Shown: positions 4,304 through 23,139 of the stretch, one piece after another
Layout of the letters: each line of letters starts with the position of its first letter
Position numbering within the stretch: the first letter of the stretch is position 1
IMG/VR virus record: IMGVR_UViG_3300011102_000328
Location: 1 to 48,463 of that record
Length of the DNA: 48,463 nucleotides
Origin: a virus
Lineage: Duplodnaviria; Caudoviricetes
Reading direction: 5' to 3' (one strand)
Translations under genes and position numbers: made by a program
The notes under the pieces: generated by a model
Database searches by the model: none
What the model was told of the DNA's origin: nothing
Seen by the model: the letters and a program-made list of their open reading frames with translations, nothing else

Positions 4304-4837
4304 TCACCCCGCGATGAATTCGTATGCGTGGGTGCGCTGGCTCACTTCCATGAGCTCGGCGCACTGGGCGTCGTCCAGGTCTGCTACGTGCTCCATTGCC
4401 GCCAGCGGCCACAGGCGGGTTGGTGGGCGCCAGTCGTTCATCAGCCGGGGATACGTGAGCCCGCCGACCACCCGTGGCATGTCGAGCAGGTGGATGAAAT
4501 TCCCGTAGGCCCTTTTCTCGCCCTCGTCCACGAACAGAATGAAGATCGGCATGGAGTGGCGCCGTGAAAACTTGATGTAATCTTGGTAGTGGCGCTCGGA
4601 AATTCCGGTGGCCGGCCAGCGGTTGAGCCGCGCTTTCGCCTTCACCTCCACCACGATCGCCTCCTGTTTGTTGCGCACGCACAGCATGTCGAACGTATGC
4701 GCCCCGTCGGTTTCAGGCCGGTAGACGATCCATCCCATGCTCTCGTAGAGCCGTTTGGCAATCAGCTCCCCAATCTCGCCCTTGCGCATCGCCGTTTGAA
4801 AACTTCGTGGTTTCGTTGCCAAACGATTCCCATCCAT
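4304..4837 (-). CDS. PD-(D/E)XK-like putative endonuclease
   Basis: KGEIGE...HTFD...VEVKAK; start may be 4789. Confidence 0.65.
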   Translation of the reverse strand: MDGNRLATKPRSFQTAMRKGEIGELIAKRLYESMGWIVYRPETDGAHTFDMLCVRNKQEAIVVEVKAKARLNRWPATGISERHYQDYIKFSRRHSMPIFILFVDEGEKRAYGNFIHLLDMPRVVGGLTYPRLMNDWRPPTRLWPLAAMEHVADLDDAQCAELMEVSQRTHAYEFIAG

Positions 4838-6011
4838 GACGTTTCTCGCGAGAAAAGAAGTCCAGTTTTCGCCCTCTGGTTACGGCCTCGACGAACTGGT
4901 AGAACGATTCGGGTTTGCGGCTGTGCTCGCGCCGCGGCTCACGCAAAATGTCGCGCAGCGAGGTATTGCTCCAGAACGGCCGTCCCCTGATCCCGATGAG
5001 GCAGAATTCGCACTGCATGCGCACCCACGCGCCCATGCCGATCCGCTCTTTGTCCCAGACCAACGTAGCCTTGTACTCGAAACCCCATGTTTTCATGAGG
5101 TTGAACGCATCCGGCAGGAAACGGTGGGTCGTCCACAGGAACAGCACACAATCATCTGCGGCGGGCAGATCGATTGCCGCGATGTCCTCGAGGCTCATTT
5201 CGGGATAGGGATTGGCGACGCGGCTGCCATTGGGGTCGTATTCGCGGCCATAGGGCCATGGCGGGTCGATGGCAATCACGTCGAACACGCCAGATGGCGC
5301 CTGAACGGCACCGGATTCGATTTCCGTTTTCTGCCGGGCGATGTCCTGCTGGAACCGGATCTTCTTCACGTCCTTTACCGACGCCGCCCCGTGCTCGACA
5401 ATTGCCCTTGCCACTTCGCGCTGCTCTTCTTCCGGCATCCGGGCAATCGCCAGCAGATCGGTTTTCGATTCGGCCACCGGAGTCGAGCGCAATAGCTCGC
5501 GCACGTCTTCAGGGATGCGCGTGGCGATTTGGACGTCGCGGTAGATGCTCCGCTCGTTGGCTCCAGTTTTCTTCGCTGTATCTTCGACGAATGTCACTGA
5601 CAAATTGTCAGTGACATTGTGTCCAAGGCTGCTGTGCATCCCGATCGCCTGCGCCACCCCTTTTCTCGTTTCCGGGTGCAATGCCTCATAGATGGCCTTT
5701 CTCCGCGCCAACTGCTCCGCGCGTTCGAGCGCGGTGAGCTCGTTGCGAACGAGGTTCTCGTCGATCTCTGCGAGCTCCGCGCGCATGTCGTCGGCCTGCA
5801 CGATGCGCGCGTCGATCTCCTGCCAACCAAGCTTTCGGCACGCCTCCAACCGGTGCATCCCGGCCACCAGGCGGCGATCCTCGGTGATCACGATTGGTTG
5901 GAGCAATCCGAGCTCAGCGATCGACTCGGCCAGCGGCGTTACGTCGCCGAGCGAGCGTTTGCGCTCTCCGACGACGATCTCGGAAATGGGCACGCGCACG
6001 ACGTCGCTCAT
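4713..6011 (-). CDS. ParB-like domain fused to MT-A70 family adenine methyltransferase
   Basis: GLLQPI...AGMHRLEA, ENLVRNELT; DPPW, LFLWTT, HSRKP, GNET motifs. Confidence 0.9.
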   Translation of the reverse strand: MSDVVRVPISEIVVGERKRSLGDVTPLAESIAELGLLQPIVITEDRRLVAGMHRLEACRKLGWQEIDARIVQADDMRAELAEIDENLVRNELTALERAEQLARRKAIYEALHPETRKGVAQAIGMHSSLGHNVTDNLSVTFVEDTAKKTGANERSIYRDVQIATRIPEDVRELLRSTPVAESKTDLLAIARMPEEEQREVARAIVEHGAASVKDVKKIRFQQDIARQKTEIESGAVQAPSGVFDVIAIDPPWPYGREYDPNGSRVANPYPEMSLEDIAAIDLPAADDCVLFLWTTHRFLPDAFNLMKTWGFEYKATLVWDKERIGMGAWVRMQCEFCLIGIRGRPFWSNTSLRDILREPRREHSRKPESFYQFVEAVTRGRKLDFFSREKRHGWESFGNETTKFSNGDAQGRDWGADCQTALREHGMDRLPA

Positions 6012-7040: not shown

Positions 7041-7078
7041 AGCGTAGCGCTTGACTATTTTTAGCGTGGCGCTATAAT
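7041..7078 (+). promoter_or_regulatory. PL promoter with two OL-like operators
   Basis: TTGACT(7051)-16-TATAAT(7073); AGCGTAGCGCT at 7041 and AGCGTGGCGCT at 7063. Confidence 0.85.
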
Positions 7079-11060: not shown

Positions 11061-11564
11061 ATGAATTTCGTGCTGGAAAACACGTTCAACATCAACCGGA
11101 TCGACCCGGAAGTCGCATCCCGAGAGTTGATGCGCCTTGCGATGAAACACAAGGCTCTGACCCCTCGCATTGTGTTGGAGGCCGCGCGCGATCCAGAAAA
11201 CCCGCTCCATGCGGCGTTCGACTGGGATGACCAGGAGGCCGCCGAGAAGTGGCGTCTGCATCAAGCGCGAGCCTTGATCCGCTCGGTGCGCGTGGTTGTG
11301 GAAGAGCGGGAAACCCGACCCATGTTCGTCCATGTGGCACCCGATGCGGGATACCAACCGCTCTCCGTGGTGGTGAAAAACCCGTCTCTTTTTGCACAGG
11401 CGCTTGCTGAGGCGAATGACCGTCTTGCCGCGGCAGAACGTGCAGTGAGCGATCTGGAAAAGGCCGCGAGGATTGAATCCAGCGATCCTGAGCGGCTGAT
11501 GAGAATTGCTGCAGCTGCTCGTGCAATGGAAATGGCGCGGGTTGCCATATCTGCGCTCCATTGA
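11061..11564 (+). CDS. Conserved-looking phage protein immediately upstream of the GGN-NN array
   Basis: AAGGAG RBS; LTP..VLEAARDPENPLHAAFDWDD.EAAEKWRL.QARALIRSV. Confidence 0.85.
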   Translation: MNFVLENTFNINRIDPEVASRELMRLAMKHKALTPRIVLEAARDPENPLHAAFDWDDQEAAEKWRLHQARALIRSVRVVVEERETRPMFVHVAPDAGYQPLSVVVKNPSLFAQALAEANDRLAAAERAVSDLEKAARIESSDPERLMRIAAAARAMEMARVAISALH

Positions 11565-11567
11565 CGA

Positions 11568-11831
11568 GGTAAGGCGTGGCGCGGCAGGCAAGGCTTGGCG
11601 CGGCGTGGACCGGAGAGGCACGGCATGGCAGGCAAGGCAAGGCGTGGACCGGAGAGGCACGGCATGGCAGGCAAGGCAAGGCTGGGCAGCGCGCGTACCG
11701 GACCGGGAGGGCTAGGCTAGGCGCGGCAGGCGGGGTATGGCGAGGCGCGGCGTGGACGGGCCATGCGCGGTATGGCGCGGCAAGGCAGGCACGGCAAGGC
11801 TAGGTGTGGATCGGATAGGAACGGCAGGCAT
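11568..11831 (+). ncRNA. Array of GG(C/T/A)-NN pentamers divided into units by GGCAGGC; candidate guide-RNA array
   Basis: About 48 in-phase pentamers plus six GGC-A slips at 11583, 11627, 11666, 11725, 11784, 11823; 3' stem GCCGTT/AACGGC at 11841-11865. Confidence 0.75.
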
Positions 11832-11888
11832 CAGCGGCACGCCGTTGGCCGCAGCAACAAACGGCATTTTCGTGAAATGGAGCAAAAA

Positions 11889-12089
11889 ATGGCAACGAAA
11901 ACAGCATCAGTCGAAGTGGCAATCAAACCGCCGAAAATCGAGACGGCGCATTTCCACATCGTCGGCACGAGTCCATATGTTCAGTGCCGATTCAGCCATA
12001 AAGCCATGAACATGATGGCCGAAAAGATGCTCGCTGCAGTTTCTGGTGCAGCACCTCATCGAACATCCGCCGCGTGTGGTGGTTGTTGA
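11889..12089 (+). pseudogene. Truncated putative RAMP/Cas7-like array-associated protein, N-terminal ~48 aa only
   Basis: GGAG RBS; MATK...IKPPKIETAHFHIVGTSPYVQCRFSHKA resembles a RAMP first strand plus G-x-S-P; sequence changes character near 12033 and no C-terminal Gly loop is seen. Confidence 0.55.
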
Positions 12090-12266
12090 GGTGAGAGAGC
12101 CGCAACTTGCTCCAAAGGAAAAGGGAAAACGAAAAAAGCCACGATCCTCTTTATCGGGCAGCGCCGCCAGCAGAAACGCTGGCGGGCGGCGGAGGTGCGG
12201 GCGTATTACGAGCGGAAGAGTAAATAAAAACTATCGACGCTCTGTTTCGGCATAGCAAAAAATCAC

Positions 12267-12295
12267 TTGCATTTTACGACCAATGGTCGTATATT
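12267..12295 (+). promoter_or_regulatory. Sigma70 promoter with a palindromic operator
   Basis: TTGCAT-17-TATATT; perfect inverted repeat TACGACCA-A-TGGTCGTA at 12275-12291. Confidence 0.85.
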
Positions 12296-12355
12296 GACAC
12301 TGTGTTCAGCGAGAACACAACCGCGCCTCGGGAAACAGGGGCTCTGGAGAGGATC

Positions 12356-12577
12356 ATGAAATACTACGTTACAGCAGGGAACAACTCGACTGACCTCGGG
12401 ATCGTTGGTTACACCAACTCCATAGAACAGGCAAAACGCATTGGCCGCAAAGCCGTCAAGACGCAATTGCCTAACGGAGAGGGGGATTTTCGCGTGAGGG
12501 ATTCAGAGACGAAGGAAGAACTCTTCAGAGAAGAACGATCGATTCGTACAGATTTCAAGTGGGTGCGCTACGACTGA
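12356..12577 (+). CDS. Small AT-richer protein, candidate anti-CRISPR/anti-defence factor
   Basis: GGAGAGG RBS; 73 aa; own promoter; TGATG-coupled to an HTH gene. Confidence 0.7.
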   Translation: MKYYVTAGNNSTDLGIVGYTNSIEQAKRIGRKAVKTQLPNGEGDFRVRDSETKEELFREERSIRTDFKWVRYD

Positions 12578-13080
12578 TGGCCAACCACCCCAACCGCAGC
12601 CGCCGGTCCCGCGCCCCGGCGGCCAACCCTACCCCGGCGGAAATCAGCGCCGCGCGGGAGTTCCTCGGCCTCACGCAGCAGGAGGCTGCCGACCTGCTGT
12701 ACCTCACGCTGCGCGCGTGGCAACGCTATGAGGCAGGCGAGCGCCGGATGCACCCGGCGCTGTGGGAGTTGTTCCTGCTCAAAACGGAATCTGGCCGCAG
12801 CCGGCCAGCCATACGTGCGGGAGGAATGAGCGCCGCTCAATTCGCCGCGTGCGACCCCGACACGATCCGAGAGCTGCTCGACGAACGCGATGCGTTGGCT
12901 GCGGAGGTCGAGCGGCTGGCGGATGCGTTGCGGGAACTGGAAGATCGCGCACAGCGCGACGAAGCTCTGCTGCGGCAGGCACTGGATGCCCTTGCTTACT
13001 GGTTGGAGCACGGCGAGACACCCGGATCGCACGACATCATTCAGCGCACGCATGACGTTTTACGGAAGCGATTGAAATGA
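12577..13080 (+). CDS. Aca-like XRE HTH regulator fused to a coiled-coil phage segment
   Basis: MANHPNRS...AREFLGLTQQEAADLLYLTLRAWQRYEAGERRMHP, followed by ACDPDTIRELLDERD. Confidence 0.75.
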   Translation: MANHPNRSRRSRAPAANPTPAEISAAREFLGLTQQEAADLLYLTLRAWQRYEAGERRMHPALWELFLLKTESGRSRPAIRAGGMSAAQFAACDPDTIRELLDERDALAAEVERLADALRELEDRAQRDEALLRQALDALAYWLEHGETPGSHDIIQRTHDVLRKRLK

Positions 13081-13244
13081 GTGGTGATCACAACGCATTT
13101 CAGAAGCGCGAGTCATACGAAGACAAGCGCCGAACACAGTCGCTCGACACCCGCCGCGCTCGTATCTATCAGCGTATCAGCGAAGTGTTTGATCAGCTGG
13201 GTGATCGAGTTCAAGAAACTGGAGCAGAAGGAGAACAGCAATGA
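13077..13244 (+). CDS. Small hypothetical protein (MSGDHNAFQK...)
   Basis: Read by hand; ATGA overlaps at both ends. Confidence 0.55.
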   Translation: MSGDHNAFQKRESYEDKRRTQSLDTRRARIYQRISEVFDQLGDRVQETGAEGEQQ

Positions 13245-13522
13245 ACATGATCAATGACGGAGGCCCGGCGTTTCCGCTGCCGGTAAATGACGAGCAGTGC
13301 CGCGCCAGATTTGACAGCGGCTATGGAGGCATGACCCTGCGCGACTATTTTGCGGCGAAGTTCGCCGCCGCAATGATGACTGCGACTAGCGCGGATCACG
13401 ACTTCCCCAACATCGACTATCAGCGAGATGCCGGTGGCCCAACCGTTGCAGAACGTGTTGCGACCATCGCGTACCGCATGGCCGACGCCATGCTCAAGGC
13501 ACGGGAGGCGAGCAATGACTGA
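13241..13522 (+). CDS. Phage hypothetical protein (GGPAFP...GMTLRDYFAA...ADAML type)
   Basis: Recognisable phage motif; AAGGAG RBS. Confidence 0.8.
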   Translation: MNMINDGGPAFPLPVNDEQCRARFDSGYGGMTLRDYFAAKFAAAMMTATSADHDFPNIDYQRDAGGPTVAERVATIAYRMADAMLKAREASND

Positions 13523-13901
13523 CACTACACACGCGGCGCTGGAGGCGCTGAAGGCCGAGAACGAGGCATTGCGGGCGGAGGTGGCCGCGATGCGAAAAGC
13601 TATTGATAGGGCGTGGAATGAAGGTTTTGACTTCGCTATGAAATCCTGCGGTTGGCAAGAAGATGAAGACCCTGTCACCGAAGGGTTATACGTGGTACGC
13701 GATAGTAAGGGCAATGTCGAGGTCGGTATGTGGTACGCCGAGACCTCTAGTTCTTGGCCTGCCGAGTGGACTCGTGAGTTCCGTGATGTGGACCGAGACG
13801 ACATAGTGGCATGGATGGCAATTCCAGATTGGAGAGCCGCGCGTAACACCTACAAGCTGGCCGACGCCATGCTCCGCGCACGGGAGGCGAGCAATGACTG
13901 A
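13515..13901 (+). CDS. Hypothetical protein, DUF551-like
   Basis: GGAGG RBS; W-rich, ending IVAWMAIP. Confidence 0.6.
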   Translation: MTDTTHAALEALKAENEALRAEVAAMRKAIDRAWNEGFDFAMKSCGWQEDEDPVTEGLYVVRDSKGNVEVGMWYAETSSSWPAEWTREFRDVDRDDIVAWMAIPDWRAARNTYKLADAMLRAREASND

Positions 13902-14148: not shown

Positions 14149-14450
14149 GAGCGCGCATTACCGCCGATCCTACCAGCGGCGTGGTCACGCTGCGGTACTA
14201 CGACACCGTAGCCCGCGAGGTGCGCACGCGACAGTTCGTCGTCCCCGCCGATGGCGGGTACGTGCTCGAGCTCTTGGCGAAGGGCGATTGTCGCCCCGGC
14301 TATCTCACCCAAGGCGCCCCGCTCATCGCCGAGAGCTCGGCGGAACTGGCCGATGTCATCCGCCGCGAGTATCGGCGGATGCGCGCCGCCGAGCGGCGCC
14401 TTGTATCAAAACGTAACCAAGGAAGCGCTGGCAAAGGAGAAAGACAATGA
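14145..14450 (+). CDS. Hypothetical protein
   Basis: GTGA coupling; GGAGG RBS. Confidence 0.6.
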   Translation: MRARITADPTSGVVTLRYYDTVAREVRTRQFVVPADGGYVLELLAKGDCRPGYLTQGAPLIAESSAELADVIRREYRRMRAAERRLVSKRNQGSAGKGERQ

Positions 14451-14740
14451 GCAATGACCGCTACGAACGCATCCGTGCCGCGCTGGCGATGAGGCCCACG
14501 CCCGGGCCGTGGGCGGCTTGCCGCACCAATAGCGGCACGTTCGTAAAAAGTGAGAGGCTTGCCGGGTATTTTGTGGAGGTGCGCCATTGCCGCACGGCAC
14601 AAGACGTCAATGCTGATGCTCATCTGATCGCCGCCTGCGACCCGGACACCATCCGGGCGCTGCTTGATGAGCGCGACGCGCTGGGCGCGGAGAACGCGAG
14701 GCTGCGCGAGGCGCTGGAAGGCATGGAGCAGAAGGCATGA
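14447..14740 (+). CDS. Ead/Ea22-like protein
   Basis: PTPGPW...ADAHLIAACDPDTIRALLDE. Confidence 0.7.
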   Translation: MSNDRYERIRAALAMRPTPGPWAACRTNSGTFVKSERLAGYFVEVRHCRTAQDVNADAHLIAACDPDTIRALLDERDALGAENARLREALEGMEQKA

Positions 14741-22224: not shown

Positions 22225-23013
22225 TCAGAACAGCCCGGCCGGCTCGGCCTGTCGGTCCCAGGAGTAAACGATCAGCTCTTGGCGCTGCGCCGGCCTGGCC
22301 CCTCCCCCGACGATGTAGGCGATGTCGACCACCTCGACGTCGAAACCGGCGAACACCCGCCTGATGTCCGGGTGGTCATTGATGCTGAGCAGCATCTTGC
22401 CCTGCAGCTGGCGCATGCAGGCCGCCAAGCGCTCGTACTGCTCGAAGGGGAAGTCCACGCCATAGCCCTCGGTCTGCCAGTACGGTGGATCGGCGTAGAA
22501 CAGCGTGTGCGGCCGGTCATATCGCGCTACGCACTCCGCCCAGTCGAGGTGCTCGATGTAGGCGCTGGCCAGCCGCAGGTGCGCGGCGCTCAGATCCTCC
22601 TCGATGCGCAGCAGGTTGACCGCGGGCGCGGTGGTGGCCGTGCCCCAGGTCTGCCCGCGCACCTTGCCGCCGAAGGCCTGGTGCTGGAGGTAGTAGAAGC
22701 GCGCTGCGCGCTGGATGTCGGTCAGCGTCTCCGGCGGCGTGATCTGCAGCCACCGAAACACCTCACGGCTGCTCAGTGCCCACTTGAACTGGCGCACGAA
22801 CTCCTCGAGGTGGTGCTTGACGACCCGATAGAGGTTGACCAGCTCGCCGTTGACGTCGTTGATCACCTCGACGTCCGCCGGCGGCCGCATGAAGTAAAGC
22901 GCGGCGCCTCCGGCGAACAGCTCGACGTAGCAGGTGTGCGGTGGAAAGCGTTGGATCAGCAGCTCGGCCAAGCGGCGCTTGCCACCGATCCAGGGGATGA
23001 TGGGACTTGCCAT
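22225..23013 (-). CDS. D12-class (Dam-like) DNA adenine methyltransferase
   Basis: PWIGGKRRLA, YVELFAGG, INDVN, ADPPY. Confidence 0.95.
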   Translation of the reverse strand: MASPIIPWIGGKRRLAELLIQRFPPHTCYVELFAGGAALYFMRPPADVEVINDVNGELVNLYRVVKHHLEEFVRQFKWALSSREVFRWLQITPPETLTDIQRAARFYYLQHQAFGGKVRGQTWGTATTAPAVNLLRIEEDLSAAHLRLASAYIEHLDWAECVARYDRPHTLFYADPPYWQTEGYGVDFPFEQYERLAACMRQLQGKMLLSINDHPDIRRVFAGFDVEVVDIAYIVGGGARPAQRQELIVYSWDRQAEPAGLF

Positions 23014-23040
23014 GGGCTCCACGCGTCTTGAGTACACTTC

Positions 23041-23139
23041 GCCCGCCATCGCGATGGTGGCAGGGCCTTGGCTGGGCCCACAGGCGCGTCTGTGGGGCTG
23101 GCGGCCGGCCCGGGTGTTGCCGCACCCGGGCCGGTCGCC
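23041..23139 (-). ncRNA. Three-hairpin leader upstream of the methyltransferase, possibly the D12-methyl RNA motif
   Basis: Stems at 23041-23066, 23076-23098 and 23101-23139. Confidence 0.5.

Follow-up and report, generated by a model that had tools for sequence, protein, structure and literature searches.

A staggered-type VIPR guide array beside a truncated vipr gene, probably an orphaned remnant

The window analysed here, a virus record of 48,463 bases with a GC content of 0.66, probably carries a guide array of the staggered VIPR type whose vipr gene has been cut after codon 49, and which is best read as a recently orphaned remnant that would need the Vipr of another virus. VIPR is a CRISPR-related DNA silencer of phages that was described in 2026 (10.64898/2026.04.26.720920) and that is also treated, as far as its available text goes, in a second preprint (10.64898/2026.10.21.760802). 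This kind of system has thus already been published, and the locus, judged from its sequence, represents a damaged member of the staggered-array VIPR systems. Kinship with VIPR-type systems had been suggested by the original prediction, and it is borne out by the flanking vap and vipr genes, by the arrays found beside vipr in related loci, and by the variation of the guides. The features of the locus are collected in Table 1.

Table 1. Features of the VIPR locus and its surroundings (positions in the window).
Feature	Position	Strand	Basis or remark
Sigma-70-like promoter match, 11/12 (predicted)	7051–7078	+	Precedes the recT-yqaJ-ssb-vap-array-vipr run; context
vap-type accessory gene, 167 aa, intact	11061–11564	+	95–99% to cluster members; PHROG 15946, unknown function
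Lead-in to first GGC-A-GGC boundary	11568–11586	+	Lattice analysis
Guide unit 1 (U1), 44 nt, 8 NN	11587–11630	+	AA TT GC GT CC GA AC AT
Exact 39-nt tandem duplication over unit boundary	11602–11679	+	Copies 11602–11640 and 11641–11679
Guide unit 2 (U2), 39 nt, 7 NN	11631–11669	+	AA AA GT CC GA AC AT
Guide unit 3 (U3), 59 nt, 11 NN	11670–11728	+	AA AA TG AG GC CC CC AG TA TA GC; three degenerate triplets
Guide unit 4 (U4), 59 nt, 11 NN	11729–11787	+	GG AT GA GC GT CG CA GC AT GC AA
Guide unit 5 (U5), 39 nt, 7 NN	11788–11826	+	AC AA TA GT TC TA AC
Hairpin (conserved loop of 10 nt), separating array from vipr start	11841–11866	+	Covarying counterparts in relatives
vipr stub, codons 1–49 of a 208-aa Cas7-like protein	11889–12034	+	48/49 residues identical to P0010
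Small foreign gene, joined close to its start	12035–12255	+	ORF 12046–12255; deletion or recombination join at 12034/12035

Results

The pentamer array and its guide units

The array is a lattice of pentamers, each made up of a GGN triplet and a variable dinucleotide (NN). Pairs of GG at a lag of 5 nt numbered 42 between positions 11568 and 11840, against 11.9 ± 3.0 (maximum 22) in 2000 dinucleotide shuffles, and the best 300-nt stretches elsewhere in the phage held 10 (plus strand) and 9 (minus strand) such pairs, compared with 43 for the array. No second pentamer-type periodic tract was found elsewhere in the window. The predicted division of the lattice into five units of 44, 39, 59, 59, and 39 nt proved exact, and all five predicted NN strings were reproduced letter for letter. 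The units are set off by GGCAGGC motifs at positions 11583, 11627, 11666, 11725, 11784, and 11823; these six GGC-A-GGC shifts give each guide boundary the one-base offset expected for staggered-array VIPR, in which guides share “1 nt overlapping positions” according to the legend of fig. S18, within the available part of that preprint (10.64898/2026.04.26.720920).

The 44 triplets comprise 28 GGC, 9 GGA, 3 GGT, and 4 degenerate ones (CGC, GTA, and GGG in U3; TGC in U4), so that GGY accounts for 31 of the 44 and GGC, GGA, and GGT together for 40. The original prediction placed the GGA triplets mid to late in each unit. This holds for the array in the window but not as a rule, because GGA is flat, at 7 to 11% from pentamer 2 onward, across 327 units of related loci. 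In these relatives (L002–L111), 516 of the 704 array-like intervals from one GGCAGG to the next have a length of 5n+4; the distinct in-register units number 381, and the distinct units lying between two true phase shifts (n = 163) have a median of 9 pentamers. Avoidance of GGCAGG inside guides was considered and ruled out, because 84 of the 111 AG pentamers within the lattice have the form GGC-AG-GG, which in the relatives is an ordinary NN. Some staggered arrays are very long, with 16 to 22 GGCAGG sites (L009:1682–2464, L073:3611–4194, and L091:1813–2431). An Rfam search gave no match, and in the RNA run X23 the sole piece was 61 nt long and less than 90% alike, which gives no evidence of expression.

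The vipr stub and its intact relatives

The array had been described as filling a gap between two ORFs. The upstream ORF is indeed an intact gene, vap, but the downstream one consists of a vipr stub of 49 codons that runs on into foreign sequence. The stub is 98% identical to intact relatives and is detectable by tblastn at E 3e-28; this search finds residues 1–49 only, and no further pieces of vipr in the window. Residue 37 of the stub (position 11999) is a His, where all seven intact members of the cluster have Gln, a change compatible with relaxed selection.

One of these seven, P0010 (208 aa), was used to characterize the intact protein. On its own, P0010 matches the Vipr of Escherichia phage SUSP1 (PDB 36pp) at E 1e-3, and a profile of the 24-sequence P0010 family does so at E 2.2e-7. 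The predicted model of P0010 (pLDDT 84) superimposes on Cmr, Csm3, and Cas7-11 chains with Z scores of 9.9 to 10.9 over 132 to 147 residues (rmsd 2.8–3.8), and the Vipr of the intact relatives is thus predicted to fold as a Cas7-like RAMP. The RNA-binding residues of SUSP1 Vipr named in the available text of 10.64898/2026.04.26.720927 are R138, D177, and R179. They align with R150, E189, and R191, which are conserved in the P0010 family and which all lie beyond the break in the window. A stand-alone RAMP gene with RRM, thumb, and G-loop is present in the 98%-identical relatives and absent from the window phage. The original prediction had one protein subunit bound to each GGN; since three-quarters of vipr is deleted, such binding is impossible with the phage’s own Vipr.

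Linkage of vap, vipr, and array

Using P0010, we collected 104 vipr loci, many of them close kin, consisting of the best 80 of 151 in IMG/VR and 24 in GTDB genomes; one of them, L096, whose genome is unpublished, supports no claim by itself. A vap homologue was found in 97 of these loci and a pentamer array beside vipr in 97, with 92 having both. Among loci with 1.5 kb on both flanks, the counts were 69 of 70 for the vap homologue and 67 of 70 for the array. The predicted linkage to the flanking gene families was therefore observed, for both vap and vipr. An upstream vap, as in the window, is seen in just 4 of the 97 related loci that have one. Fold searches with Vap gave no clear match.

Among the matches listed, named phage records match the Vipr and Vap proteins at adjacent places (31 and 33, respectively), and the records matching both include Cyanophage Cy-LDV1 and Mycobacterium and Gordonia phages. 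The closest named record for the pair, again among the matches listed, is Cy-LDV1 (BK059895.1), whose g34 and g33 correspond to Vipr (75%) and Vap (37%). Unlike the window, Cy-LDV1 has an intact vipr with vap downstream; both genes are annotated as hypothetical. In records of Mycobacterium (25) and Gordonia (5) phages, members of the vipr family occur as unannotated genes, and a vap match adjoins them among the matches listed. Mycobacterium and Gordonia phages with vipr would provide cultivable models for the clade.

The join at 12034/12035

The transition from vipr to foreign sequence is likely a real break. In run X1, a single 1,810-nt piece spans the join (11653–12400) at a depth of 32.8, with no differences and no loose end. 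The same join occurs in L001, which is 99.68% identical to the window over 8,339 nt and differs from it at 25 positions. Seven other runs were searched. Among the pieces listed, contigs from X2, X3, X6, and X7 track the window to 12034 and then continue into other sequence, which in X2, the one run for which letters were shown, encodes the next residues of intact Vipr. Other contigs, from X2, X3, X7, and X18, begin at 12035, and the sequence upstream of that point ends in a start codon; the join therefore leads into a different small gene close to where that gene starts. Among the pieces listed for the seven other runs, none bridges the join.

A hairpin between array and vipr

The original prediction had a hairpin closing the array. 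The folding energy of the window copy, which has a one-base bulge, is no better than that of shuffles (z 0.42), but counterparts in relatives support the structure. In L010, L011/L012, L088/L089, and L095, the same 10-nt loop on a 6- to 8-bp stem separates the array from vipr. In an alignment of five sequences, 93% of the cells pair and four of six pairs change on both sides; none of 500 shuffles reached this covariation, and slid controls were at most 47% paired. This count is biased, as the five sequences were chosen by loop motif and stem. Of 25 distinct loci whose vipr match has a lattice upstream, 7 contain the loop; some of the 25 are mis-placed starts. Likely roles for the hairpin would be control of vipr translation or protection of the RNA's 3' end. 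The VIPR preprints, in their available texts, do not mention the hairpin; figures or supplements may show it.

Duplication and turnover of guides

Unit 2 is the product of an exact 39-nt duplication, a chimera in which the head is that of unit 3 and the tail that of unit 1. U1 and U2 are thus not independent, because the stretches 11602–11640 and 11641–11679 are exact tandem copies. Run X1 supports the duplication, in that the repeated piece has a depth of 77.5 compared with 33 to 35; a 57-nt piece (11614–11670) of the same run runs across the repeat join.

The original prediction proposed a comparison of orthologous loci, which shows that GGN is kept and NN varies. In the near-identical phages of runs X2, X3, X6, and X7, guides are replaced or dropped between conserved flanks: the X2 contig has 156 other nucleotides in place of 180 nt of the array, the X6 contig skips 11622–11665, and the X3 and X7 contigs diverge within the array after 11594 or 11604. 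Most often shared among these phages are unit 5, which is the best conserved one, and the head of unit 1. Near-identical phages with and without vipr, carrying different guides between fixed flanks, form a natural series, and the 39-nt case, a guide arising by in-register duplication, bears on how VIPR guides change.

Target searches

The original prediction expected the NN strings to match a gapped target. For U1–U5, neither the phage nor 0.52 Mb of VIPR loci yielded a target that exceeded shuffles, and for U1, U3, and U4 none was found in IMG/VR. Specifically, self-targeting in the phage with a 1-nt skip did not exceed shuffles, and the guides matched vipr, vap, and VIPR neighbourhoods in the 0.52 Mb no better than shuffles. 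The IMG/VR searches used an exact 1-nt skip with U1, U3, and U4, the shuffled controls belonging to the phage and VIPR-locus searches. U4 and U3 in full gave 0 loci each; their eight 3' NN gave 31 and 2 loci, with best matches of 20/22 and 19/22, and no gene family dominated. U1 in full gave 60 loci in 16 groups, which were taken as chance matches. These loci all have a GC content of 0.29 to 0.48, compared with 0.66 for the window phage, and 35 of the 60 belong to one low-GC family in which the site lies outside long ORFs. A match of U4 to the phage with skip 0 (18/22; 2 of 500 shuffles) was dropped, being one of 20 tests and following a rule that VIPR does not use.

We also ran a clade-wide test with 252 guides of relatives against 1.16 Mb. 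A 10-NN guide of L058 (3866–3920) matches L057:2611–2639 at 20 of 20 positions with a 1-nt skip, which by a uniform-base estimate would be expected well under 0.001 times. The skipped base falls at the wobble position, and the site encodes the Walker A motif of an ATPase-like gene. A guide of L060 has an 18/20 match near this Walker A site in the same L057 locus. Just downstream of its own array, L058 has a homologue, at 91%, of part of the L057 ATPase-like gene. For skips of 0, 1, 2, and 3 nt, strong hits of the 252 guides numbered 1, 4, 1, and 3, with 2 for shuffles; these numbers fail to tell the rules apart, and support for the 1-nt skip comes from the one perfect match.

Discussion

Comparison with known VIPR systems

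In the available text of 10.64898/2026.04.26.720920, staggered VIPR systems share with the locus in the window that they are phage-borne, that vipr is accompanied by one vap, and that guides of GGY/NN pentamers are offset by one base. Unlike these systems, the window has lost three-quarters of vipr, carries vap upstream, and has GGA at 9 of its 44 triplets. GGA abolished silencing in the SUSP1 tests, according to the text and the legend of fig. S12 of the same preprint. In addition, two of the guides in the window have 7 pentamers, compared with the 9 to 16 reported there for staggered VIPR.

The likeness to the type II VIPR of SUSP1 lies in the homologous Vipr, the intact relatives of the window keeping the thumb Arg and the acid and Arg of the G-loop; the residue aligned with W178 of SUSP1 is a Gly in these relatives. 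The guides of SUSP1 are separate RNAs of about 100 nt, each with a pseudoknot tail (10.64898/2026.04.26.720920), whereas the units in the window abut without tails and a single hairpin closes the array.

Guides without a Vipr of their own have a precedent. According to the available text of 10.64898/2026.10.15.759431, solo vrRNAs redirect the Vipr of a helper in SUSP1 satellites, and 346 vipr-null phages keep one or two vrRNAs. The window resembles these vipr-null SUSP1-like phages and F5 satellites in that a deletion has left guides without Vipr while intact sister phages exist alongside. In the phages described in that text, vipr and vap1 are cleanly lost, one or two guides remain, and many of these target vipr or rival vrRNAs; in the window, by comparison, vap and a vipr stub remain, there are five guides, and we found no target in vipr or a rival vrRNA in the 0.52 Mb of VIPR loci. 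Since the stub is detectable at E 3e-28, the window, although it has no functional vipr, would fall outside the literal no-Vipr rule of that preprint, as its available text gives it.

Proposed mode of action and alternative explanations

By analogy with the published system, the array would be transcribed with the early recombination operon, and the transcript would be processed at the one-base phase shifts into RNAs of 39 to 59 nt. One Vipr would then bind per pentamer, hiding GGN and presenting NN to double-stranded DNA as NN-x-NN-x, and the outcome would be silencing of a gene of a rival phage. In the window lineage, the RNA-binding thumb and the glycine-rich loop are lost and the default is therefore no activity; without Vipr from another virus, the array is likely idle. 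VIPR likely still operates in the intact sister phages. That vap, array, and hairpin lack signs of decay fits a recent loss, and it fits continued use as well.

In the case of continued use, the phage would have dropped vipr but would still make guides, and Vap, that are taken up by the Vipr of a sister phage, either co-infecting or resident, and that redirect or dilute this Vipr. We consider this unlikely, though it deserves the most weight among the alternatives. It draws on the SUSP1 satellites and the vipr-null phages cited previously, on the existence of near-identical vipr-positive phages, and on the undamaged array, hairpin, and vap together with a join that recurs in two slightly different assemblies. 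Against this, the matches of the guides to vipr, vap, or VIPR neighbourhoods do not exceed those of shuffles, the break has left a stub and cut into a second gene as an ordinary deletion would, and the join is unbridged among the listed pieces of seven other runs; moreover, run X1 has no listed branch to an intact vipr, although contigs drop rare variants. A broader scenario of similarly low probability has the vipr-less phage hijacking the Vipr of its sisters, the hairpin acting as a control or processing element bound by Vipr or Vap, and in-register recombination, as in the 39-nt duplication, creating guides without an integrase by joining one guide’s head to another’s tail.

Two further explanations would remove the orphaned array altogether. 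The join could be an assembly chimera, the real phage having a complete VIPR: each of its two sides is seen without the other in other samples, the window may derive from X1, and L001 may have the same origin. The X1 piece nevertheless crosses the join at normal depth without a branch, and L001 reproduces it despite its 25 differences, which makes a chimera highly improbable. We give marginally less credence still to the idea that the tract has no guide function and is a repeat of a microsatellite-like or peptide-coding kind, despite the short ORFs that overlap it, the slippage-like duplication that created one unit, and a target search that found none. The original prediction rejected a microsatellite, and the data agree: the period of 5 with variable NN, the 5n+4 lengths of most intervals in relatives, the tight linkage to vipr and vap, and the perfect gapped match of a relative’s guide all disfavour a simple repeat. 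We therefore retain the orphaned staggered-type array as the preferred reading.

Phage and gene neighbourhood

By its gene content, with terminase, portal, capsid, tail, lysis, integrase, and DnaB genes identified by Pfam among 39 selected ORFs, the window belongs to a temperate, tailed phage. No CRISPR array or other cas genes were noted, the same Pfam scan returning phage genes only and the lattice analysis no other periodic tract of the pentamer kind. No terminal repeat was found at the six lengths tried. The locus lies in a gene run consisting of recT (8157), yqaJ (8995), ssb (10614), the 167-aa vap ORF, the repeat tract, and the ORF starting at 11889, and the run from recT to vipr may be cotranscribed from the promoter match listed in Table 1. 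A search for a host gave no match at E 1e-40 among 300 sampled genomes; the integrase is 54% identical to that of Burkholderia phage Magia, and a vap homologue at 55% is labelled Rhodocyclaceae.

Downstream of the locus, an XRE/MqsA-like HTH (12577–13080) is fused to an Ead/Ea22-like stretch resembling the ORF at 14447–14740. Two adjacent ORFs at 13241–13901 share the terminal motif ADAML.AREASND, which suggests an internal duplication or a module swap. The phage also encodes two methyltransferases, a ParB-MT-A70 fusion and a Dam-like enzyme (4713–6011 and 22225–23049).
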